This document shows, piece by piece, positions 31,244-62,394 of a stretch of DNA of 64,000 nucleotides. The stretch is from Basidiobolus meristosporus CBS 931.73 (Eukaryota > Fungi > Basidiobolomycota): assembly GCA_002104905.1 (NCBI GenBank), contig MCFE01000157.1, positions 1 through 64,000 of the forward strand, given 5' to 3'. Each line of letters opens with the position of its first letter. The stretch's first letter is position 1. The notes below the pieces were generated by a model, which searched no databases, was not told the origin of the DNA, and was given only the letters and a program-made list of their open reading frames with translations. The translations under genes were made by a program, and so were the position numbers.

Positions 31244-33481
31244 CCCTGTGAAAAATAGTTGCAATGATCCTGTCAAAGTGCCATCACAAAATTACAATCC
31301 CATGACTAAGAGGTATTGATCCCATCAAGACACCATGCAAAGACTGTTAAAAATTTACACCTTAGATTTCATCCAAAACTTGGTTGAAATATTTCATCAC
31401 AACAATACATAAGTGCCTTTTGATTGGTTTTCTGCCAATTCTCTCACTTTCTGATCTTGGACACTCAATCAACTCCTGTGTCTGTGTACATGGATTGGCT
31501 ATTGCTACTTTTTCACACTCTTTACTTCCTGACTCAACAGAGGCTCTTATTTTACATGCATACAAATTGGTTTCTTTGTATGGAAACTTCAGTTTTAACT
31601 CAGTTACCAATTGTACTGACCTATAGAAGTCCCTATACCCAACACTGACATTAAGCCCAACCTAACACTGAGTAAGTAACTCCATTAAAATCCACCATTC
31701 AATTAGTGCCTCTGCTAAAACTCCCATTTTCCATGACTCAAGTGGGAACCCTGAAGCTTTATGCCATTGTTCATTCACAGGTTTGCATATGTCCTGGTCT
31801 TCAGCCAGCACTGCAAAGTCTAGCACCTCATCTGCCAGTCCTTGCAATATATCCTTGCAGTATTCAATTATGTTTTCTGGAGCACTGTCCTTGAAGTAGT
31901 GCTGCAGCCTTTTGCTGCACCTGTTGTTGCCCCAAAATTCCACTGTAGGTATTGTGAAAGTCTTCTAAGTTCTTGATATTGTTACTTTGTCTGTGGGATT
32001 ACCACTCTGTCTTCAATGGAGGACATGGAGGCTGTGGTAGACAACTTGCCTTTCACTGCAAACTTATCTACCTCACTGGAGAGTAGTTCAACTGGCTGCA
32101 CCTCCAACTCTTGAGAAAATAGATGTTGTCTTCTTGGTAACTTTTAATGACTATTATGAGATTCTGCCTGTTCTTAGCTGACAGCATTGATTGGTGAGAA
32201 CCAAAACTTTTTTCTAATGCTTGCCTGTCCCTGCCTTTGGTAGACTTTTCCCCTTCACCTTCATCCTTAATGCTACCAGATCATTCATTGCTTTTTGACT
32301 GAGTGCTTCTTGTGTGGTGGTACATTTTCTATGGGATTCAGCCTGCTCTAGGTTGACAGTGTTTTTTTGCTGAGAACTACTGCACTTTCTTACACATCCC
32401 TGTCTCTGGCTTTGGTAGACTGCTTTCCCTTTACCTTTCCCTTTATCACTGCCAGGTCTTTGATTGCTACTCTGTGTGAGTGCCTCTTGTATTGAACTAT
32501 GTTTTATCTTTGATAGATGATGCACTGATGCATCTATATACACCTGCTTGTCTCTTACCAGCACATTTCTGACTGTTGTAAAAATTTGTAATTCCACCTA
32601 AATATTCACCTAACTTAGTCACTTAGATCATTACCTTCAAATCCCAGAGAATAATGACCAAATTTCTGGTTGGGATTTACTTAGAATATTTTCACCAAAA
32701 TACCAGGTACCCAGAACATGAAAATTCTCAAAGTTGTCCCAACAGCCCCAAACTTTGCACATATGTTCTTAGGACCTTCCTTAACCTATTCTACATGCTT
32801 GTTGTGCCATGACCATGTAAAAGTATAAATACTACTTTTACACTCATTAAATCATAAAGTGAAACCACATAATATACTTGTCCTCTCAATCACTTCCAAT
32901 ATCTCCAAGACTCTTACAACAATGACAACCTGGCATTCCTTTGCCACTTGTTTTGAGCTTTTGGCCTGGCTTACAATGGGCTTGTAAGGAGGCTGCTTGC
33001 TTTTAGCCATGTCACCCTTGTTCTTGTGCTTTTAGTAGTTTCTGCTATTTTTGAGATACTTTCTCAGCTTGCTAATGCTGGCCCAAAATCCATTTACTTG
33101 CTTGAATCCTGCAAAATGATCATGGAACAGATATAGCGCATTCTGCTTGGCCTTGTGTTCCTATTGGTCCCATGGTGTGCCAGCCTTAAAGTGATGGCAT
33201 GCTAGACCTCTTAAGGCCTCCTGAATATTAGCCCACTTTTCATCATTGGACTCAATGGCTTCACCAATCCTCAGTGACTTGATATGCTCAGGCTTTGTCA
33301 TGGGGATTGCAATCTCTCCCTTATATGCTGTGATAGGTTTTTCAGTAGGCTTTATCATTAGGCACTTTTATTGTTCTTCAGAGACTTTACAGTGTTCCTC
33401 TGCTATTATATTGGGAAATGGCCCAATACTTGGATGAGATATCAAGCTGCTTAAGCTCCTTCTTTGCTGTAAAGATACTGT
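31244..33481 (-). mobile_element. CMC/EnSpm-like transposon copy 1: accessory-ORF end with terminal repeat
   Basis: Starts CCCTGTGAAAAATAGTT at 31244; reverse-complement homology to 49900-51673; carries a solo LTR; truncated at 33481 by copy 2. Confidence 0.8.
32574..32921 (+). mobile_element. Solo Ty1/copia LTR, 348 bp
   Basis: TGTTGTAA...TTACAACA termini; flanks CTGAC / ATGAC (5-bp TSD, 1 mismatch); reverse-complement homologue of the copia 5' LTR at 41457-41804; host sequence is continuous in the copy near 43770-43820. Confidence 0.92.
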
Positions 33482-35625
33482 CCCTATGAAAAATAATTTG
33501 GCTCTGCAGGTGAAATAGATCCCAATCAATGTCAGGATCCCACAATGAGTCTGTCATGATGCAAGCAGCTTGGAATTATTGACCCTCCACACCATCTATG
33601 ACAGGATTGTAATGTTGTTTTGCTGATTTTACTGCCAAATTAAGCAAGATGAAGTAGAAATGAATACAGTGGTGGCAGAGATCTACACATTTTGCTATAT
33701 ACAGGTAGTATAGACACTCAAATCCTGTCACAAACCCCTTGCATAAAAGCTGTAGATGTGTCAAGGTGGCATTGGTGCTCTGCTGCTGGATAAATATGCC
33801 TACAATGTCAAAATATGACACCCAATGCTTCCAATGTACTCTTAGCATATATGGCCTCAGAAGGCCACTTGAATAAATACATAAGTAGTATCCAGTTGGA
33901 AAGCATACAAGGTTCATCCAGTATTGGATACAGGTAGTTATCCAGGTGGGACAGTTACTAAGGCCCAGATACCAGTAAGATTACCATCTGATATCTGCTC
34001 TGATACTGTAAGATAGGTGGCTGATTCAGGTTAATGAGAATCAGCTGCTAGCAAGATTTACTGGCAGAGTAACTGTAGGATAAGAATCCATCAAGTGCAA
34101 AGGCAAAGACATGGTCATACATACCTTAAGAGTAGCCCTTACTTCTTAGTTGTTTGTAATGTTTCCATTGAATCCATTTGAAATGTTTGCATTTGATTGA
34201 TACCAAGTGTGATACTTTATAGCTTCAAAATATTTGCTGAACTGCATGAGCTTCTTTAGACAGGGTATTACTGGAACATATCTGGAGTGTAAACAATGCT
34301 TTCCTCTTATGATGGCTGATTCCTGACAAGTTGGAAACCTTTCAATAGTGGCATTTGTGATGCAAATGCCATGCAATTGTTAGTACATGCGGGTATCAGG
34401 GCAGTCCATGGGTCAAATGTTGCCAGCCACATGATGGTGGACCATTTGTACCATGTACATGGTAAGTTGCATCTGGGAATGATTTTAGCACGAAGTAGGA
34501 GGAAATCTGCACAGCGCCCATTACTGATATTAGTGGGAACACACCACTTCTCTAGCCACAACATCACAACACTCACCAGTAGATGGATTTCTGGGCTCAC
34601 TTGACTCCAAAAAGTATCCTTGGCATTTTATTTCATTAAAGTTGTCATATTGCATATTGTGATTTTGCCAGGCTCATGCAAGGCTCCATTGTTAGGGAAG
34701 ATAGGCTCACAGTCCATCAGTGTGCCATCTTCTTCAGAGCTATCACTCTGAGTGCCATATTCAGAAGGCTGAGGTGAGCCTAAAGCTGTCACAAACTCAC
34801 CTGACTCAGTTTGTGCAAGGTGACAAGTACAGCTAGATGCCTTTGTAAAAGTACCAAGTAGCCAGCAAGATATTGTGGCTACAGTAGTGATTGATGAAGG
34901 ATCAAATATGACTTGTGTGGCAAAACTCTGGCTGTGATCATTTTAATACTTCATATGCTGTCTGCATGCTTTATGACTGACAGGCTTGTTACATTAGCCA
35001 CTTGGTCTTTTTCTCTTCTTTTACAGCATTTAATCATAGTAATCTTCTTCATGGGGCAAACAATTTGACCCACAATAATGTGACACTGTTACACCACTTT
35101 TTTGTCCATACTCATGTGAGTTTAAGACAATCTTTTATTTAAGACAATGAACCTACACAAATGTCATGTTCAATGATGACCTGCTATGGTAAGCACTATG
35201 AATACAGTTGTGGCACCACATACACACTTATATGTAATACTATTTCCCCTTTGGTTGGACTCACTTCTTGATATATGCTGCCAAAAAATAAAACAAAGCC
35301 ATCTGGTCCCCAATCAAGCCCCACTACTGACAGCAGCAGCATTGGTTGGATAACAGCTTGCTTTGACATTTGGCACAACAAGCAAAGCTACATCCAAAAA
35401 AGGCAAGATTGACAGTGTGCCCACTGAAGATAATAATGTGGACTCCTCAGGCTCTTAGTAAAGTAGGAAAATACGAATCTCTGCAGAGCTGCAAGCTGAC
35501 CCTAATACCCAGGCAGATGAGAATGCAGTAAACATAGTACCTTTGGCTGAAAACCAGTAAGTGGCCTTCATGATATCACTACTACCCATAATAGCAAGTA
35601 TGTTGTCAGCTCATACCATAGCATT
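33482..35625 (-). mobile_element. CMC/EnSpm-like transposon copy 2: terminal repeat, internally deleted Tnp2-family transposase, shared upstream region
   Basis: CCCTATGAAAAATAATTTGG terminus at 33482; transposase fragments at 33576-33917 (HLQLLCKGFVTGFECLYY), 33900-34140 (LILINLN.PPI...VSGP....YLYPILDEL) and 34146-34376; 35020-35625 is homologous to 49130-49710. Confidence 0.85.
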
Positions 35626-35663
35626 AGACTTGTTCCATTGTACTGTGCCAGGGCATTTGGTGC
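35626..35663. mobile_element. Left terminus of an AGAC-family foldback/PHIS-like element, interrupted by a solo LTR
   Basis: ATT|AGACTTGTTCCATTG; the host site is empty in the homologue near 49700 (CCAAAGCATTAATG); GGCACTAT-like subterminal repeats resume after 36739. Confidence 0.7.
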
Positions 35664-42925: not shown

Positions 42926-44482
42926 TAACCAACAGCTTTATGCCACTGTTCATTCACTAGTTCCCATACATCCTGGTTTTCAGTTGATAATGCAAGATCT
43001 AGCACCTCATCTGCCAGCTTTTGCAATAATTTCTTGTAATATTCAGGTGCGTTTTCTTGAGCACTGCTCTTGAAGAAGTGCTGCAACCTGTTGGCGTGCC
43101 TATTAATGTTCCAAATTCTGCTAAAGGCATTGCAATGGTCTTTTGAGCTCTTGATGTTGTAGCCTTGTCGGTCAGTGGGATCTCCACTCTGTCAACAATA
43201 GAGGATGTGGAGGCTGTGGTAGACAAATTGCCTTTCTCTGCAATCTCATATACCTCACTGGAGTGTAACTCAACTGGCTGCACTTCCAACTGTTATGAAA
43301 ACAGCTACTTTCTTGTAAATAAATCTTCCTGGCTACAAGGAGACTTATTCAGTTCTGTGCTTATGGCATTTATTGGCAAGAGCTGCAACTTCTTTTGTAC
43401 ACTTCCCTGTCTCTGGCTTGGGTAGGCTTTTTTCCCTTTCCCACTTTCTTTATGACTGCCAGGTGCTTCACTGCTACTTTTTCTGAGTGCTTCTTGTATT
43501 GAACTATGTTTTCTCTGTGATAAATGCTACTCTGATGCATCTGTTTTGGCTTGCTTGTCCCTTGCTGGCACTCTGCAGGCAACCTGATGCTTCTTTTCTG
43601 CTTGTTTCTAGCTCTCAGCCCATATTGTGACTGGCTCCTGAGGTAGCCAGTTGTTTTTGACACTCCCAGGTCCATCACTGCTACTTTGACTGAGTGCATC
43701 TTGAGTAGAACTACACTTTTCCTTGGTAAATATTGCACTGATGCATCTGTGTCTGCCTACTTTTCCCCAATTGGCACTCTTACAGCTACCTGATGTCTCT
43801 TTGATACTTGCTTGGAGCTTTTGGCCCTGCTTGTAACAGGCTGTTGAGGAAACCATTAGTTTTTAGCCATTGAACCCTTGTTCTTCTGCCTTTTATAGTT
43901 TCTGCTATTCTTGAGATACTTTCTTAGCATACAAATGCTGGCCCAAACCTGTTTGCTTGTTTGAATCCAGGACACTGCTTATGGAGCAAGTCAAGCACAT
44001 TCTGCTCAACTTTGAGTTCTTGATGGTCCCAATGTATGCTGGCCTTAATATATTTGCATGCTACAATACTAATGGCCGCTTAAATATTAGCCCTTTCTTC
44101 AGCATTGCACTCAATTGCTTCACAGATCTATAAAGTCTTTTGATTTTTAAGCTTTGATATAAGACCTAAATTTCCTCCCTCCCATGCTGTGATAGGTTCT
44201 TCTGTGGGCTTTATTGTTTGGCACTGATGTTGTGCTTTAAAGACTGTATGGTATTTCTCTGCTGTTACATCTAGAAATGGCTCATTTCTTGGTGGTGACA
44301 TTGAGCTACTTAAGTACCTTCTTTGCAGCAAAGATACTGCTTTCTTTACCTGGGATATTGACTGCCATACACTGTGGATCTGCTCATCCAGCTTTGGCAC
44401 TATTTCCAGATTTCTCTGGGCCATTGCATCTATCCTATCAGCCATTGTGCCCAATTACTTCATTAATGCTTTAGTATGAGCT
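42926..44482 (-). mobile_element. CMC-like transposon copy 3: accessory ORF region, both ends lost
   Basis: Reverse-complement homology to 49690-51170 (MEVQPVELHSSEV..., LQKLADEVLDLA..., ADRIDAMAQRN). Confidence 0.8.
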
Positions 44483-44624
44483 AACTTTGCCATAGTTCAG
44501 TTTGTCTTTACCTTCTTATCTCCCTGCCCAAACTTCTCCTTCTATATGTGACACTATATAAAACAAGTAGTAGGGAGTAGATTTTGGCATCTCTAACATT
44601 TACCAATCTAAATTGTAGTTACTG

Positions 44625-45028
44625 AATTAGAGAATTTATAAAAATACAAATGCAATGGCACTATACAAAATCAACTGCAAGGTGCAAATTTTTGTATCTT
44701 TAATATTTTACAAAGCTGGGGCATATTTACCAGATTGGGGAATTTATAAAAATCCAAATGCACTGACACAATATATAATAAGTAACAAGAAGCAAATAAT
44801 TGTATCTTTAATAGCTTACAAAGTTGGGTTGCAGTTACCAGATTATGGAATATTTAAAGATACAAATTTTGTAGCACTATACAAAATAAGTAACAAGGAG
44901 CAAATAGTTGTATTGGATTAGAGAATTTGTAAGATGCAAATACAGTGGCACTATACAAATTCAACAACAGGATGCAAATTATTGTATCTTTAACAACTCA
45001 CAAAGTTGAGTTGTAGTTACCAAATTAA
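44625..45028 (+). repeat. 108-bp tandem repeat (~3.7 copies) encoding a 36-aa unit
   Basis: Unit starts at 44625, 44733, 44841 and 44916 (third unit has a 33-bp in-frame deletion); translation LPDWGIYKNPNALTQYIISNKKQIIVSLIAYKVGLQ / LPDYGIFKDTNFVALYKISNKEQIVV. Confidence 0.85.
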
Positions 45029-45479
45029 ATAGATGATAATATACAAATCTGCTGACCTTGTGCAAAAGTTGTTTCAAAAGTTTAACCAAATGATTTGAGT
45101 AGACTTAAATAATTCTGTAAAGACTTTTTTGCAAACTAAATTTAAAAACCATGTTAAAATATTGAATATTAAAATCCAAGTGTGAAATTCAAATATTAAA
45201 CATCAAATATCAATTATCAAATATCAAAATTGTAAAAACTTTTTAAGTCACAAGAGGTTACTTAAGACTTCAAGTTTGGTTGGGAAAAAGTTTAAACCAT
45301 ATTAATTTCCAAGAAAAAACCTTTTTAAGCAAAGTTTACTCAGAGTTGAAAATAATAAACAATCTAAAAAAGCTGTTACACAAGACATCTATATCAAAAA
45401 GTAGTTTGGAATAATTAATGTGTCATGACAAGCATAATCATCTTGTAACTTATACAGTTTGTGTTTGTTCTAATTTTTT

Positions 45480-47270
45480 TACATATTGTTTGGCCTTTTC
45501 ATTGATCCAACCATCTGTTTAATATAATCATCTTCACCCAATATTCCTAACAATTAATCTATTCAAGACATAATTTGATGTTCCATATAATAGACTTGTT
45601 CCATTGTGCCATTGGTCATAGTGCCAGAGTGTGCTGTATATTTTGTTATTAATTTGATATTTTAGGGTCATATGCATGTCAATTTTGATCCCAAACTGGC
45701 ACTGTATGGCACTATCTGGCACTCTGTGGCATGATCAGGCACCATCTGGCATGCTATGGCACTATTGGGCACTATGATCAGCTGGAATGATGGAACAAGT
45801 CTAATACAAAGGATTGACTTCTAATTCTTCTATTCTTGCCAATTCTTAGGCATATACATCTTTTCACCTGGTGTATCACCCAAAGCTGTAAAAACATATT
45901 CTAATCTGGTGGCAGCACTTACCTTTATACCATTAGCTATTAATCATTCAGCCGTGACAACTTGAGGGGGTTTGACTTTGTATTCATCTAGATTTTTAAC
46001 AGATTTAGCGATGCTCAAAAGATCAGTGGGAATATTTTACTCAGACAATCTGTATTATGTTTATTAACATTAGAAATAATCTGAACTTTGGGAAATTGTT
46101 AACCATACTGGTAATAGTACTACTATAGAGATCTTTTGCAAGTTGGCAATATCCTTGTTGGGCATTCATAACACCCTTGTATTTAAGAGTGTGATTCTTG
46201 TACATAATATATCTCTTTTTAGACATAAGAATAATTATGTCATAGTATTCTTTGAAGTTAAGTGGCATAGGTTGAGGAAGCATACTGGTACCATCTTTGC
46301 AAATATCATGGCACAGTTGGATATAATTGGGTGCGGGGATAGGAGAAGTAGGAATAATCAGGCAGGAATCAGTGTCACCATAAATAACTCTGACTGGATA
46401 ATTATAGGATATATGAGTGACAATCTGATCCAAATATTCTCTACCCATAAAGGAAATAGATTCAACGCAGCCCAAATGGCTAAAATATTTATTCTTTTCA
46501 AAGCCCATGTTTGACACAATATTTCCCAACAAGACTCATCTGAGACAGGTTCAAGGATTTGAAAGCATCTCATATTTCTTCATAATGGATGTCATCTTTG
46601 TCAACACCTAAAAGTTTTTCAGAGACAAAATGTGAACTGTATTTTTTGAGCTTAAAGCATTTAAGGTAAAGCATAAAATCAACAATAAAGTCACAACATA
46701 TTTGGACAGGCTCTAAATAAAAGCTTAATTGTTCAAAGACATATTTAAAATCAAAGCCATGAGTATTTTATCCAGTAGTAATATCAGGATCTAAAGTTTG
46801 GACAAGAGAGCCTAACTTTTGAAGAAGTTCAACCTTGGTAGAGAAAAAAGCTGGGTGATGTTATCATTGGCAGGATCATCAAGTGGTTGATTGGCAATAA
46901 AGAGGAGATTATTATCAAGTTTGCCAGACATGTAATCAGTCATAACAATATTAATCATCTCAAGCTTATCACCAGGTTTGTAAGTTTTGGGCATTCCAGA
47001 GTTAGCAGAGACCATTCATTCAATATCAAATGCCATAACCAATGGGAAAGTGGGCTTGTTACCATCAATGGGTGATATTTTTGTTGGATGAAAAACATGC
47101 TAAGTTGGGAGATGGGTAATAGAGTTATTGGGTTTGGTGTAAACATCTTTAATCTGGACCCAACCAACAAAGGCAAGGCTGTATTTAGATGTAAAAATTG
47201 GAATACATTCAAATTTGCACATTTCACATATAAATGAGGTAGCACATTGAACAAATTCTTTCATGTGCAA
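45480..47270 (-). pseudogene. polB: Decayed intronless family-B DNA polymerase with 3'-5' exonuclease, virus-like
   Basis: ExoI VMAFDIE (47019-47036); ExoII DPDITTG*NTHGFDFKYV (~46740-46792); KLKKYSSHFVSEKLLGVDKDDIHYEEI and ExoIII YCVK; then MGFEKNKYFSHLGCVESISFMGREYL, VIYGDTDS (46365-46382), SKKRY, LKYKGV, KSVKNLDEYKVKPPQVVTAE...RLEYVF and C-terminal VNPLYYMEHQI. Motif A region is deleted near 46510; AT-rich. Confidence 0.88.
45592..45802. mobile_element. Short AGAC-family MITE (211 bp) inserted in the polB 3' end
   Basis: AAT|AGACTTGTTCC...GGAACAAGTCT|AAT with a perfect 3-bp TSD; removing it restores the in-frame VNPLYYMEHQI; internal GGCACTAT repeats. Confidence 0.9.
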
Positions 47271-47848
47271 ATAGTTTATAAAGTAATGATAATAAGAAAT
47301 TTTTTATTTTTAATGGCAAGAGATGTTAGCATATAAACATCTTGGACGGCCGTAAGATGGGCAGCAGATTCAGATTGATGAGAATCAATGGCCAGCAGGA
47401 TATGCTGATGGAGTACTTGTTTAATGAGAACTCATCAAGTGCTAAATCAAAGGCAGGGTCATACATACCTTCAAGGTAGCCCTTGCTTCTTAGCTGTTTG
47501 TAATATTTGACATCAAATATGTTGGATATGTTTGTGCTTGATTGATACTGGGTACAGTACTGTAGAGCTTTGCAATATTTGTTGGACTGCAGCGGCTTCC
47601 TCAGACAGGCTATAACCAGAATACATCTGGAGTGTGAACAATGTTTTCCCTCAGTGGTGGTGGATTCCTGACAATTTGGACACATTGCAATGGTAGCATT
47701 TTTGGATATGAATGCCATGCAGCTGTTAACATATGCTGGAATCAGGGCAGTTTCTGGATCATATGTTGCCAGCCACATGATGATTGTCCACTAGCACCAT
47801 GTACATGATAAGTTGCATCCTGGTATGATTTTGGCAGGAATTAGTAAT

Positions 47849-48582
47849 AGACTTGTTCCGTTGGATAGTGCCACATTGAGCCATGAGTGCCAAATGATGC
47901 CATAGTGTGCCAGAGAGGCCAATTGAGCCTCTACCTGGCCACAGAGTGTGAAACATAGCTCTGCATCTTCATGCAAAGCAGCCCCTGTGTTTCACCCATT
48001 GTGTTGGAGAAAATCCATTTTTTGACCTTTTTTTTTGGATCAATGCTGTGCAGGATGTGTTAGAGCACAAGCAGATTGAAGATATGCATCTGGTACTCAA
48101 TACCCATGGCACTCTGAATCTAGCTCCTGTAGCTTATATCATGTCACAAAAATGAATGGCACTATCTTGGTCCACTGGTACTATCTGGCACTATAAGTGC
48201 TTTGTATAGATCTTACTTTAGGGCTAATATTTAAATATAGTGCCAGATAGTACCAGTGGACCAAGATAGTGCCATTCATTTTTGTGACATGATACAAGCT
48301 ACAGGAGCTAGATTCAGAGTGCCATGGGTATTGAGTACCAGATGCATATCTTCAGTTCTCCTGTGCTCTTACACATCCTGAGCTACATTGATCCAGAAAA
48401 AAAGGTCAAAAAATGGATTTTCTCCAACACAATGGGTGAAACACAGGGGCTGCTTTGCATGAAGCTGCGGAGCTATGTTTTACACCCTGTGGCCAAGTAT
48501 AGGCTCACTTGACCTCTCTGGCACACTATGGCATCATTTGGCACTCATGGCTCAATGTGGCACTATCCAATGGAACAAGTCT
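47849..48582. mobile_element. Full-length foldback element (734 bp): two ~347-bp inverted arms around a 40-bp spacer
   Basis: Arms 47849-48195 and 48236-48582 are near-perfect reverse complements in their inner part; AAT|AGAC...GTCT|AAT TSD; the homologous CMC site near 34495 is empty. Confidence 0.93.
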
Positions 48583-49448: not shown

Positions 49449-51250
49449 TTGACATTCAGTGCAACAAGTGGGGCTACGTCCAAAAAAGGTTCTGTGGACA
49501 GTGTGCCCATTGAAGGTAATAATGCAGACTCTTCAGGCTATCAGTCAAGTAGGCAATTGAGAGCCTCTGCAGAGCCACAAGCTGACTGTTATGCTCAGGT
49601 ACATGATAATGAAGCCAATGCAGTACCCTCAGTTGAAGACCAGCAAGTGGCCATCATAACATCACCGCTACCCATATTAGCAAGTATGTTGTCAGCTCAT
49701 ACCAAAGCATTAATGAAGCAAATAGGTGCAGTGGCTGATAGGATAGATGCAATGGCCCAGAGAAATCAGGGAGTTGTCTCAGGTAGCTCAATGTCACAGC
49801 CAAGGGTTGAGCCATTTCCCATTGTAACAGCAGAGGAACACCATACAGTCTTTGACAAACAACAACAGTGCCCAAAGATAAAGCCCACAGCAAACCTATT
49901 ACAGCATGGGAGGGGGACAATGTGGTGGTAATACCAAAGCCTCAAAATCAAAAGACATTGGAGATCTGTGAAGCTGCTGAGTGCAATAATGAAGAGTAGG
50001 CTAATATATAAGAGGCCATCAGAAGTCCAGCATGCCATCACCTTAAGGCCGGCATACCATGGGACCATTGGGAGCTCAAGGCCAAGCAGAATGAGCTTGA
50101 CTTGTTCCATGAGCATTATCCTGGATTCAAATGGGCAAACAGATTTTGGGCCAGCATTGGTATGCTAAGAAAGTATCTTACAAATAGCAGAAACTATCAA
50201 TGGCAGAAGAACAAGAGCACCATGGCTAAAACCAGCGGTTTCCTCAAGAGCCAGTTATAAGCAGGGCCAAAAGCTCCAGATAAGCATTGAAGAGATATCA
50301 GGTAGCTGGAAGAGTGCCAATTAGGGACAAACAGGCAGACACAGATGCACCAGCACTACATTTATCAAGGAAAAAGCATAACACCACTTAAGAAGCACCA
50401 AGTCTAAGTAGCAGTGAAGGACCTGGCAGTGATAAAAACCAGTGGCTTTTGCAGGAGCCAGTCACAACCACAGTTGAGAGCTTAAAACTAGCTGAAAAGA
50501 AATGTCAGGTTGCCCAAAGAGTGCCAGCAAAGGGCAAGCAGACCAAAACAGATGCATCAGAGCAGAGTTTATCCAGCAGAAAATGTAGTTATTCACAAGA
50601 AGCACTCAGACAAAGTAGCAGTGAAAGACCTGGCAGTGATAAAGACAAAGGTAAAGGGAAAACTGTCTACGCAATCCTGAGACAGGAAGGCATGCAAAAA
50701 AAACTGCAGTTATTGCCTATTAACACTGCAAGCCTGGAACAGACTGAGTCCCATCATAGCCAAGAAGAATTACCAACAAGAAAACAGCTCTTTTCACATA
50801 TGTTAGAAGTGCAGCCAGTTGAGCTACACTCCAGTGAGGTAGATGAGTTTGCTGAAAAAGGCAATTTGTCTACCACAGCCTCCACATCCTCCATTGTTGA
50901 CAGTGTGGAGATCCCACTGACAGACAAGGCTACAGTGTTAGGAGCTCAAAAGACTATTGCAATGCCTTCAGTGGAATTTTGGAACATTAATAGGCACACC
51001 AACAGTTTGCAGCACTTCTTCAATAGCAGTGCTCAAGAAAACACACTGGAATGTTGCAAGGATTTATTGCAAAGACTGGCAGATGAGGTGCTAGACCTTG
51101 CAGTGCTGGCTGAAGACCAGGATGTGTGGGAACCAGTGAGTGATCAGTGGCATTAAGCCATTAGGTTTCCACCAAAGTCACAGTGCCAGAGCTTCACAGC
51201 AGAAATACTTACTGAGTGGTGGACTTTAATGGAGTTACTTGTTTAGTGAA
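49449..51250 (+). pseudogene. Accessory ORF of the CMC-like element (unknown family, ~600 codons, decayed)
   Basis: Fragments 49449-49931, 49970-50290 and 50449-51156 are conserved in four copies; includes a ~207-bp internal duplication (…SSSERPGSDK… units) and a conserved C-terminal helix block LQHFF..SAQEN..E.CKDLLQRLADEVLDLAVLAEDQDVWEPV..QWH. Confidence 0.6.
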
Positions 51251-52076
51251 TGGTTGGGCTTAATGTTTGTATAGGGTATAGGGACTTGTATAGGTCAATA
51301 CAATTGGCAATTGAGGTACAACTGATGTTTCAACAGAAATAAATCAGTTTGCACACATGAAAAGTAAGAGAAATGGTCAAGTCAGGAAGTAAGGAGTGTG
51401 AAAAAGAGGCAAAAGCCAATCAATGAACACAAATGTAGGAGGTAATAGAGTTTCTGGGATCAGAAAGTGAGCAAATTGGCAGGGAACCAATCAGAAGCCA
51501 CTTACACATTATTGCAATGAAAAATTTTGACCAAGTTTTTTGTCAAAACTTGGGTGCAATTATTTTTCAATGGTCTCTGGATGGTGTCCTGAAGGGATCA
51601 GTACCTCTTAGTCACAGGACTTTAGCTTTGTGATGGCCTTTTGATGGGATTATCTCAATAATCCCTCACAGGGATACATGGAAGTCAGTCAAGCCAAAGG
51701 GGAAATGGGGTTACATATATGTGTGTATGTGGTGTCACAAATGTATTGATAATGCTTACTATGACAGGTGATCATTGAATCTTACAATCATGTAGGTGCA
51801 ATGTCTCAAACACAAGACAGTCTTGAATTTACATGAGTATTGATGAAAAAGTGACATAATAGCATTATGTTGTTGAGTGACCAACTATTTGCCCCATTGA
51901 CAAGACTACTTTGATTCAACGCCATAAGAGAAGAGTAAAAAGACCATATGGCTATTGTAGCAAGCCTCTCAGCCATAAGTTTGCATATAGCATAGGAAGT
52001 ATTACTAGAATCACAGTCAGTGTTTTGCCACACAAGTCATATTTGACCGTTCACCAGTTACTATTGTACCAACAAT

Positions 52077-52779
52077 AGACTTGCTCTGTTGGATAGTGCA
52101 ACATTGAGCCATTGAGTGCCAAATGATGCCAAAGGGTGCCAGGGAGGCCAAGTGTACCTATACTTGGCCACAGAGTGTGAACATAGTTATACATTCTCAT
52201 GCAGAGCAGCCCCTGTGTTTCACCCATTGTGCGGAAGAAAATTTGTTTCTTGACCTTTTTTTGCAATCATCATTGAGCAAGATGGACATAAGCACAGAGG
52301 AGCTGAGGACATACATCTGGTACTCAATACCCATGGCACTCTGAACCTAGCTCCTGTAGCTTGTAACATGCCACAAAAATGTATGGCACTATCTTGGTCC
52401 ACTTGCACTATCTGCCACTATATTTATAAATCAGCCCAAAAGTAAAACCTATACAAGTTACATATAGTGCCATGCAATTTTGTGAAATGTTACAAGCCAC
52501 AGGAGCTAGATTCAGAGTGCCAGCAGTATTGAGTATCAGATGATTGTCTTCAGGTTGTCTGTCCTCCTGCAGATTATGCCAACATTTATTACAAGAAGAA
52601 GGGCAAAAAATGGACTTTCTCCAGCAAAATGGGTGAAACACATGGGCTACTTTGCATGAAGATGAAGATCTATATTTCACATTCAATTGTCATGTATAAG
52701 TGCACCTGGCCTACCTGGCACACTGTGGCAGCACTTGGCACTTATGGCTCATTGGGGCACTATCCATAAGAACAAGTCT
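52077..52779. mobile_element. Second, more diverged full-length foldback element (703 bp)
   Basis: AAT|AGACTTGCTC...AGAACAAGTCT|ACT; inverted arms; removing the element plus 3 bp gives GTACCAACAATATGTTGCTGG, equal in length to the empty homologues (reverse complements near 34865 and 48955). Confidence 0.9.
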
Positions 52780-53738
52780 ACTATGTTGCTGGCTGCTTGA
52801 TATTTCTATGAAGGCACTTAGGTATACTTGTCACCTTGCACAAGCTGAGTCAGGTGAGTTTGCAACGCTTTTAGGTTCACAACAGTCTTATGAATATGAC
52901 ATGCAGAGTAATAGCTCTGAAGAAACAGGCTCCCTGATGGATTGTGAGCCTATCTTCCCTAGAAACAGTACCCTGCATGAGCCTGGCAAGATCCATTTGT
53001 GCAATGTGACAACATCCATGGAAAAAAATGTCAAGGGTACTTTATGGAGTTGAGTGAGCCCAATAATCCATCTACTGGTGAATGCTGTGATGTTGTGGCT
53101 AGAAAAGTTGCTTGTTTCCACTAATAGCAGTAATGGTGGCTTGAGGACTTACTACTACTTCTTGCCAAAATCATACCAGGATGCAACTTACCATGACACT
53201 TGATGGATTTTCATTATACAAGTACTCTACCAGCCAATCATGCTGGCTACTAATTCTCATCAACCTGAATCTGCCACCTATCTAATGGTTTTGGAGCAGA
53301 AATCTGATGGTAGTTTCACTGGTATCTGGGCCTAAATCACTGTCCAACCTCAGTAGGTACCTGTATCCATTGCTGGATGAATTTTGTATGCTTTCCTGCT
53401 GGATAACAGTAAAAGGTTGTCATGTAAAAGCGCATATTATTATCTGCATTGGAGATATCCCAGCCATACACAGTATAGGCTACATTTCTGGGCACAAAGA
53501 GTGGTATTGCTGTCAAATATGTGAGATCCAGGGGACTTACTCCATGACTAGCACACATTATTATAACCCAAACACCAACACTAAGGACACCATCTTACCG
53601 CAGAGAGAAGACACAGAAGTTGTCATGCAATTGCAGCAAGACTGGCAAGCTCTAAGCTGTTGGCTGGAATATGGAATTAGTTGGTGACTGGAGATACTAA
53701 GATAGAGGGAACCTGTTAGAGCAAAGGCTTTCTACTGG

Positions 53739-61768: not shown

Positions 61769-62019
61769 ATGCAGGTACTTGCTTAATATAGAATCACTAA
61801 CATATAGCAATATTACGTAAGTTTGGCCATAGCTTCCTGTAAGTGGCTTGGCATCTGTCTCCAGGACAACATGTGTCATGTACAGTGGGGATTTCAGCTT
61901 CCTCTGCATCTTCTGTTGTAATCATTAAGTTGGCACCTAGTATTCATGCTAACATAGTTACATAGATCTTTTCTCTGATTAGCATTCTGTGGCAATGGAA
62001 AGTATTCCATTACAATTAT

Positions 62020-62349
62020 AGACTTGTTCTGTTGGATGGTGCCACATTGAGCCATGATTGCCAAATGATGCCATAGTGTGCCAGAGAGGCCAAGTGCACC
62101 TATACTTGGTCACAGAGTGTGAAACATAGCTCTGAATCTTCATGCAAGGCAGCCCCTGTGTTTCACCTATGATGCAGGAGAACATCCATTTTTTGATGTT
62201 TTTTTATGGTTCAATGCTGTGCAGGAGGTGTAAGAGCACAAAAGGATTGATGATATGCATCTAGTACTCTATACCCATGGCACTCTGAATCTAGCACCTG
62301 TGGCTTGTAACATGTCACAAAAATGCACGGCACTATCTTGGTTGACTGG
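62020..62349. mobile_element. Left arm of a foldback element, truncated by an LTR-type insertion at CTGG
   Basis: AGACTTGTTCTGTTGGATGGTGCCACATTGAGCC... is colinear with 47849-48180. Confidence 0.85.
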
Positions 62350-62394
62350 TGTGGTGGTGTAAAGGTACTCCTAAGAGAAGCTACACAACTCCAG

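Follow-up and report, generated by a model that had tools for sequence, protein, structure and literature searches.

A probable fundsalphavirus DNA polymerase relic in a transposon nest of Basidiobolus meristosporus

Here, we analyzed a window of 64,000 nucleotides from Basidiobolus meristosporus CBS 931.73 (assembly GCA_002104905.1, contig MCFE01000157.1, positions 1 to 64,000 of the forward strand), in which a previous sequence-only reading had noticed the remains of a virus-like family B DNA polymerase (PolB). The first 30 kb of the window contain ordinary eukaryotic genes, presumably including a myosin and an allantoicase (names read from the translations), and from 30 kb onward the remnants of copia, CACTA and PIF-like elements form a nest. 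A low-copy island lies in this nest at 44486-47349, with PolB homology on the minus strand from 45483 to 47347; the island previously drawn at 44576 to 47350 was thus real, with these corrected limits. It is very probable that the island is a dead PolB fragment of a 'fundsalphavirus', a compact Nucleocytoviricota-related replicon, captured in the host chromosome of a Basidiobolus-like fungus.

The polymerase relic and its lesions

The island and the pieces of the polymerase within it are as follows.

44486-47349, no strand: AT-rich island of low copy number with a high-copy repeat fragment on either side (in self-BLAST the repeats stop at 44485 and restart at 47352; also GC content and depth)
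47285-47347, minus: remnant of the PolB N-terminal domain adjoining a truncated transposase (translation compared with alignment A1 by eye; junction alignment)
46845-47282, minus: PolB N-terminal part and ExoI (AFDIE), with stops at 47102 and 47018 (tblastn with P0003 residues 30-157; PF03104, E 0.0017)
46510-46839, minus: ExoII to ExoIII, with two stops and a small deletion near 46705 (tblastn; alignment columns 251-286 empty)
46508-46510, minus: junction of a deletion of ~180 residues (P0003 residues 311 and 498 joined; crossed by a 686-nt contig of run X1)
46095-46508, minus: palm piece with the motif B tail, YGDTDS, KKRY and KG, without stops (PF00136, E 3e-13; 92% identical to ORX91256)
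45807-46092, minus: thumb (PQVV, RLEYVF) in three frames with one stop (tblastn with P0002 residues 205-287)
45593-45801, no strand: miniature inverted-repeat transposable element (MITE) with short terminal inverted repeats, of the same family as the 732-bp MITE at 47850-48581 (TAATA duplication)
45483-45592, minus: end of the thumb (YYMEHQI) with two stops and no C4 zinc finger after it (tblastn with P0003 residues 726-765 and P0004 residues 777-815, E 0.03)

All motifs named in the sequence-only reading were present on the minus strand where it had placed them. The exonuclease motifs AFDIE, DPDITTG, GFDFKYV and YCVK are located at 47033, 46791, 46758 and 46521, the palm motifs MGFEKN, GREYL, YGDTDS, KKRY and YKGV at 46508, 46445, 46382, 46220 and 46181, and the thumb motifs PQVV, RLEYVF and YMEHQI at 45967, 45907 and 45589, respectively. 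No string of motif A (SLYPS) or of the motif B core (ALKICANS, NSVYG) occurs within 44000-48000. The sole long open piece, an open reading frame (ORF) of 164 aa at 46041-46535, matches PF00136 (E 3e-13), and the full-length relative P0003 aligned with the island in collinear pieces by tblastn (E 9e-56 and 5e-42), while the best value among 20 shuffled islands was E 0.05. PF00136 and PF03104 were the only matches of the window pieces and of the full-length relatives P0003 and P0004. PF03175, the protein-primed polymerase of Polintons and linear plasmids, was not among them, in agreement with the previous assignment to the RNA-primed type.

The relic carries seven in-frame stops (two of them in the tail) and six frame changes. 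At 46509, about 180 residues (profile columns 348-525) have been lost together with motif A, the fingers and the motif B core, such that residue 311 of P0003 adjoins residue 498 in the tblastn alignment. This is the one deletion near 46510 that had been recognized before; a second deletion near 46705, which removed about 31-36 residues (profile columns 251-286 empty), had been overlooked, as had the 5' truncation and, as described below, a tandem repeat of 108 bp. Judged by eye from the translation and alignment, about the first 65-70 residues are missing and PolB directly abuts a CACTA-type transposase fragment. The thumb is interrupted by the 209-bp MITE, flanked by duplicated TAATA at 45588-45592 and 45802-45806; the element had been correctly noticed, and the 5-bp duplication trims its limits from 45592-45802 to 45593-45801. 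Such a gene cannot yield an active enzyme, and the relic makes no working polymerase. Stops and frameshifts are thus found inside fungal DNA, as in the endogenous viral elements (EVEs) of fundsalphaviruses.

Relatives and phylogenetic position

The closest protein is ORX91256 of B. meristosporus (92% identical), followed by K7432_018329 of B. ranarum (68%, undeleted) and then by polymerases of 740-870 aa at 40-60% identity. ORX91256, hereafter the twin, shares with the relic its start point, Gln-Gln in place of Arg-Arg and the frameshifted tail, from which we infer that the piece was copied at least once after breaking. A profile search recovered 181 proteins at E 1e-20 or better, and the 120 listed include Mortierella, Linnemannia, Podila, Clydaea, Bifiguratus and Ramaria. 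Scans of IMG/VR gave no match with the ORF, only distant polymerases (22-33%) among the matches listed with profile A1, and one relative with a motif scan; plasmid records contained only distant polymerases.

In the phylogenetic trees, the window was represented by its translation, read through with an X at each break. Rows with a profile score below 140 bits or short coverage (mostly phage-type) and near-duplicates at 68% identity were excluded, and the 71-row tree, the smaller trees and the approximately unbiased (AU) test used a hand-picked subset of rows. Zeta rows were assigned by Pfam domains, and the labels of archaeal-type and nucleocytoplasmic large DNA virus (NCLDV) rows mainly by tree position. 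In the 71-row tree, the window row joined ORX91256 and K7432_018329 with a Shimodaira-Hasegawa-like approximate likelihood ratio (SH-aLRT) support of 100, inside a 24-row clade (SH-aLRT 100) that includes Bifiguratus, Mortierellaceae, Ramaria, Clydaea, Spizellomyces and environmental polymerases of ~800 aa. This clade was placed within viral rows and separate from eight rows of Pol delta and four each of Pol zeta and the archaeal type. A quick 33-row LG+C20 tree agrees, with deeper branching among Pimascovirales-like rows unsettled. The clade belongs to a group of 52 rows (71-row tree) or 22 rows (33-row tree) that also holds L003 and L008, which we take to be a marseillevirus and an iridovirid, respectively. 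The relic did not join L008; it belongs to a separate clade of compact polymerases, next to rows without names, and the irido/asco-type label proposed previously was not supported by these trees, in which L008 stood as the iridovirid reference.

The relic might instead descend from a replicative polymerase of the host (delta, zeta or alpha), as a processed pseudogene or a decayed one; the layout of RNA-primed PolB motifs is the same, and members of the clade are labelled 'DNA polymerase delta' in some databases. However, the phylogeny with NCLDV, Pol delta and Pol zeta rows placed the relic outside both host clades, and AU tests (29 rows) rejected the union of the window with Pol delta (p 1.3e-8), of the clade with Pol delta (8.3e-9) and of the window with Pol zeta (2e-69); the trees held no Pol alpha rows. 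Identity of the relic is 23-26% to the eight Pol delta and 21-23% to the four Pol zeta sequences, 22-28% to NCLDV rows and 33-69% to most clade members. Moreover, POL3_N and zf-C4pol are absent from the closest full-length relatives P0003 and P0004, which reside on gene-dense, intronless and unmethylated contigs. A host pseudogene is therefore extremely improbable. Sequence comparison supports an RNA-primed PolB of Nucleocytoviricota affinity, neither protein-primed nor a host Pol delta or zeta pseudogene, and in this respect the initial classification as Nucleocytoviricota-like holds.

The relic groups with ORX91256 and Bifiguratus BZG36_05712 in the PolB clade that Gong, Zhang and Han (2020) named fundsalphaviruses, reporting it from 14 fungal species, close to Pithovirus and with three copies in B. 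meristosporus (PMC7017919). BZG36_05712 sits on a contig of 3,791 nt, a size given in the supplement of that paper. Copy 2 of B. meristosporus is described as 468 nt on a 92,759-bp contig (PMC7017919), which is matched by ORX91256 (155 aa, 92,759-nt contig). Thus, the fossil itself is known; both this clade and its copies in Basidiobolus had already appeared in print in 2020. Unlike the copies listed there (contigs of 137,082, 92,759 and 33,329 nt), the relic has its protein record on a 151,421-nt contig and is accompanied by no other donor gene; it may be an unlisted copy.

Several observations on the clade were made in passing. Many members, P0033, P0037 and P0039 among them, carry an intein inside YGDTDS (PF14890 on several). 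Members from the basidiomycete Ramaria rubella and from EukProt records (P0270, P0034, P0266) extend beyond the hosts listed in 2020. Seven compact polymerases (P0058, P0059, P0055, P0096, P0090, P0118 and P0141), one of them from the chytrid Lobulomyces angularis, branch beside the clade and are possibly further lineages of the same kind. In Spizellomyces sp. 'palustris', a clade polymerase piece (P0030/P0179; TPX63954.1, YP_009659047.1) is found on a contig of 126,474 nt and thus as long as the circular mitochondrial genome of 126.5 kb reported for this fungus (PMC6131824).

Genomic setting, decay and read depth

GC content is 0.28-0.34 in the island versus 0.42 in the flanks, confirming that the island is more AT-rich. 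The observed/expected ratio of CpG is 0.09 in the relic (4 CpGs in 1,635 nt), compared with 0.82-1.20 in four intact relatives; along the window the genic half has a ratio of 0.82 and the transposon half (30001-64000) one of 0.07, with a sharp switch near 30 kb. Conserved Arg columns were altered in six of nine cases (three Gln, one Cys, one stop and one Asp), compared with 22 of the 112 conserved columns of other residues. CpG loss and Arg changes together are consistent with methyl-CpG decay. The AT bias, previously considered a signature of the donor, is therefore such a signature only in part, the other part being CpG decay after integration.

The following features border or accompany the relic.

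44549-45027, no strand: degenerate 108-bp tandem repeat in a stretch of 28% GC (TRF period 108, 2.7 copies, score 336)
47350-47844, minus: transposase of the CACTA type (tnp2, Transposase_21), of which the 5' part remains, cut at the island (47352-47441 aligns with 53197-53283, where the frame matches PF02992, E 4e-12)
42935-44485, minus: high-copy repeat cut at the island, with an inverted 80% copy at 49691-51158 (no Pfam match)

The 108-bp tandem repeat, located downstream of PolB, has no Pfam match in six frames, with 7-13 stops per frame, and is possibly a decayed neighbouring donor gene. Sel1-like and leucine-rich-repeat-like readings of it, made by eye, were dropped, as no Pfam family matched. 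The 1.5-kb inverted repeats were considered as the island's own termini and rejected, being high-copy and present elsewhere without the island; this pair (42935-44485 and 49691-51158) encodes a protein with a 207-bp internal repeat. The foldback-like MITE family at 47850-48581, 52075-52780 and 62018-62350 has arms of ~350 bp and a TAATA duplication at the two sites checked, and its summed depth reaches 1e6 in run X1.

The direct junction with the truncated tnp2 gene could indicate that a CACTA-like transposon picked up the polymerase piece and spreads it as cargo; the piece would then not be a remnant shortened by deletions. In line with this, a second copy of the flanks (32939-35626) has transposase remnants instead, and a decayed twin exists elsewhere. 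On the other hand, the depth of the island is that of a low-copy sequence, neither element ends nor a target duplication were identified around the composite, and the published neighbours of the twin are domains of long terminal repeat (LTR) retrotransposons (PMC7017919). Transport as cargo is thus an unlikely explanation.

Public sequencing runs provided information on copy depth. Runs X1 and X2 come from the same sample, possibly related to the source of the window, and X4 has a different organism code and belongs to a different study; X3, which bears the sample label of X1, contained almost none of the region and was set aside. In X1, the summed contig depth was 103-663 in island bins free of the MITE and boundaries and 1e5-1e6 in the flanks. 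A 686-nt X1 contig bridges the main deletion without gaps, with 12 differences (98% identity) and at the depth of neighbouring single contigs. The support of X1 for the relic is limited, because X1 and X2 represent one sample that is perhaps related to the window's source. X1 and X2 contigs over 45802-46509 and 46701-46968, 90-93% identical, have a depth of 3.7-5.7, about 1/20 of that of the deleted copy, and extend past the deletion or the MITE edge. X1 and X4 contigs cease to match at 46701 and continue beyond the small deletion, past which a contig of depth 204 also extends. The X1 and X2 reads therefore point to several related copies at different depths. In X4, the mean depth was 822 over window positions 46005-46271 and 8-31 in the remaining MITE-free PolB bins, and the loose ends of the X4 contigs, translated by hand, contain in-frame PolB residues that resemble B. 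ranarum, with their CpGs kept. If the 47 nt between these loose ends carry that depth, a bin-mean estimate would put the X4 source at roughly 200-350 times the host contigs. These data are a hint that undeleted relatives occur at non-chromosomal depth in fungal DNA runs, although the odd depths could also come from co-sequenced contaminants.

Undeleted relatives in the same runs, very high-copy flanks and the failure of any contig to cross both junctions might suggest that an assembler had joined foreign virus DNA to fungal repeats. Such a chimera or contaminant is nevertheless very improbable. The relic contains a MITE of the host whose target duplication is exact, CpG loss of the host type, the seven stops and six frame changes; the same lesions occur in the twin in a named assembly, and X1 holds the 98%-identical deleted copy at single-contig depth. 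Integration and decay in the host, as first proposed, are thus supported by CpG loss, the surrounding repeats and depth.

Several points weigh against a captured fundsalphavirus fragment. No single contig in the runs spans the island and both junctions. None of the 36 non-PolB ORFs of a 51.7-kb relative (see below) matches the 64-kb window, so that the locus rests on one gene; nor does the window contain the linked capsid, A32, D5, VLTF3 or RNA polymerase genes that might have been expected beside a viral polymerase. Methylation is read from CpG loss, the trees were without named Pithovirus, Pol alpha or Pol epsilon rows (and without ascovirus, moss or Mycodnaviridae rows), and linkage and copy number were judged from the window and the public runs, not from the whole host genome. 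The flanking genes D5, SF2 helicase, methyltransferase, RPB2, RPB5 and RP1n/RP1c, all present in relatives, are missing from the window; this does not exclude membership in the fundsalphaviruses, since many published copies, the twin included, also lack them. All these considered, we are highly confident that the relic is a real, ordinary pseudogene of a known family of endogenous elements.

A possible history would begin with the integration of a piece of donor DNA into the transposon-rich region. The host would then have methylated the insert like a transposon, with decay of its CpG sites, and deletions would have trimmed it and fused it to the CACTA transposase fragment. Subsequently, the MITE would have jumped into the thumb, and the already broken piece would have been copied at least once, giving the twin.

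The donor lineage and known systems

Five loci of relatives were gene-dense (77-96% coding) and syntenic, with no CpG loss. In intact relatives, PolB is accompanied by D5 primase-helicase, a split RPB1, RPB2, RPB5, capping enzyme, TFIIS, UDG, a FEN1-like nuclease and ligase; D5, the multisubunit RNA polymerase and the capping enzyme were found in relatives only and not in the window. One IMG/VR contig of 51,666 nt (L081, L121-L124), which belongs to another subclade and whose PolB is 37% identical to the relic, was analyzed end to end and contains 37 ORFs (82% coding), 14 of which recur in L083. Its first and last 151 nt are direct repeats, identical except for one base, and an ORF crosses the join; thus, it is likely a closed circle, the alternative being a duplicated gene at both ends. 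Its replication and repair genes comprise PolB, D5, two SF2 helicases, UDG, an XPG/FEN1-like nuclease, an ATP-dependent ligase and MutS, and its transcription genes RPB1 in two parts, RPB2, RPB5, capping enzyme, TFIIS and DUF5757. A lysozyme with a peptidoglycan-binding domain, a B-lectin protein, GNAT and an Evf/Cyt-like protein were considered cargo. Such a gene set would permit replication and transcription independent of the nucleus. The donor was probably a cytoplasmic resident of a Basidiobolus-like fungus, and its capture in the chromosome was probably accidental.

No ORF of this contig (0 of 37), and nothing in the window, matched the Pfam families of capsid, A32 or VLTF3, with E cut-offs on the contig of 0.01 for 4 ORFs and 0.05 for 32, PolB aside. 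Of two capsid candidates, the 493-aa ORF has an Evf/Cyt-like appearance and the 837-aa ORF has no structural match. The single-sequence fold of a 301-aa ORF was uninformative (pLDDT, a predicted confidence score, of 34), a search of PDB gave no match for the 301-aa or a 572-aa ORF, and a conserved 226-aa ORF had no Pfam match. Among the 118 relatives with known length in the matches listed, the longest contig was 95,100 nt, and 25 were on contigs of 50-95 kb.

The donor could have been a large DNA virus of the conventional kind that forms particles, resembling iridoviruses, ascoviruses or pithoviruses, of which only the polymerase survives here; we lean somewhat away from this view while regarding it as a serious possibility. 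The grouping of the clade with L003 and L008 would fit such a virus, as would DUF5757 in the 51.7-kb relative, an early transcription factor subunit usually packaged in virions. Gong et al. place the clade close to Pithovirus with some matches to the major capsid protein (MCP) as well as to A32 in fungal genomes (PMC7017919), and pithovirus-like MCPs are divergent and easily missed (PMC9546926), several ORFs of the contig being unexplained. In contrast, the relic is not grouped with L008, the 51.7-kb contig offers no match to capsid, A32 or VLTF3, and the ceiling of 95,100 nt speaks against a conventional large virus; in moss, the regions that belong to this clade are likewise without MCP and ATPase (PMC4083422).

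As a tentative alternative, to which we would give a little under an even chance, fundsalphaviruses are widespread circular capsid-less episomes of 50-95 kb derived from Nucleocytoviricota, which have kept the full set of genes for replication and early transcription in the cytoplasm. Their cargo would include lysozyme, lectin and toxin-like proteins, and they would still reside in Basidiobolus and in other fungi of early-diverging lineages, in some cases with hundreds of copies for each genome; the island would be a chromosomal scrap of one. This would explain the absence of capsid genes from the fungal and moss fossils of the clade. On the other hand, the capsid-less reading is based on a single genome, Pfam may miss divergent capsids and several ORFs are unexplained. 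Of the original proposal of a large DNA virus or virus-like mobile element, 'large' has become doubtful, because one probably complete relative is 51.7 kb without a recognizable capsid gene, and a virus-like element is favoured by the same relative. No complete fundsalphavirus genome is given in the parts of PMC7017919 that were consulted, and none of the open-access papers listed by literature searches (in two of them the best 20 of 81 and of 30) describes a closed capsid-less genome of the clade, although supplements and subscription journals may bear on this.

The fossil itself adds little, and its value is that of a pointer to the donor lineage. It has been open since 2014 whether capsid-less NCLDV-like fossils of moss and fungi are scraps of large viruses or of something much smaller. 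The 51.7-kb relative, the contig ceiling of ~95 kb and the hints of non-chromosomal depth make this question testable in cultured fungi. If the episome reading is true, it would offer culturable hosts for a capsid-less episome and a second route, besides yeast killer plasmids, from NCLDV machinery to a heritable cytoplasmic element; what is new is this reading of the donor lineage and not the fossil.

Known systems can be compared with the relic and its lineage in several respects. Fundsalphavirus EVEs are like the relic in PolB clade, stops, frameshifts and retrotransposon neighbours, and share D5, SF2 helicase, methyltransferase, RPB2, RPB5 and split RPB1 with its relatives (PMC7017919). Maumus et al. 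(2014) described NCLDV-like regions of Physcomitrella patens that are silent and methylated and contain neither MCP nor packaging ATPase. As explanations they raised very small genomes, dependence on a helper or insertions that were only partial, and they considered it unlikely that the regions came from a linear plasmid (PMC4083422); Gong et al. put these regions within the fundsalphaviruses (PMC7017919). They have the same gene set, but the host is a plant, up to 16 genes occur per region and the authors had no free genome. Mycodnaviridae are likewise NCLDV DNA integrated in early-diverging fungi, and are set apart from the relic by their description (Myers et al., 2026): they reach 350 kb, encode MCP and VLTF3, are placed near Imitervirales and occur in zoosporic fungi; in the same work, hmmsearch of 40 non-zoosporic fungal genomes gave no MCP (PMC13533422).

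The nearest classified viruses by PolB are Iridoviridae, Ascoviridae and Pithoviridae (Pimascovirales), according to PMC7017919 and, loosely, the trees reconstructed here. They differ from the lineage of the relic in their larger genomes, in the 22-28% PolB identity between the relic and NCLDV rows and in that the relic is not nested with L008; A32 is also absent from Pithoviridae-like viruses (PMC9546926). Finally, killer plasmids and other cytosolic virus-like elements form no particles and possess NCLDV-derived RNA polymerase, helicase and capping enzyme together with toxin cargo, and they occur in Zoopagomycota and Mucoromycota (PMC13348850). These elements are linear, about 9-13 kb in size and use a protein-primed PolB, whereas the lineage of the relic has an RNA-primed PolB, D5 and ligase and is apparently circular, at 50-95 kb.

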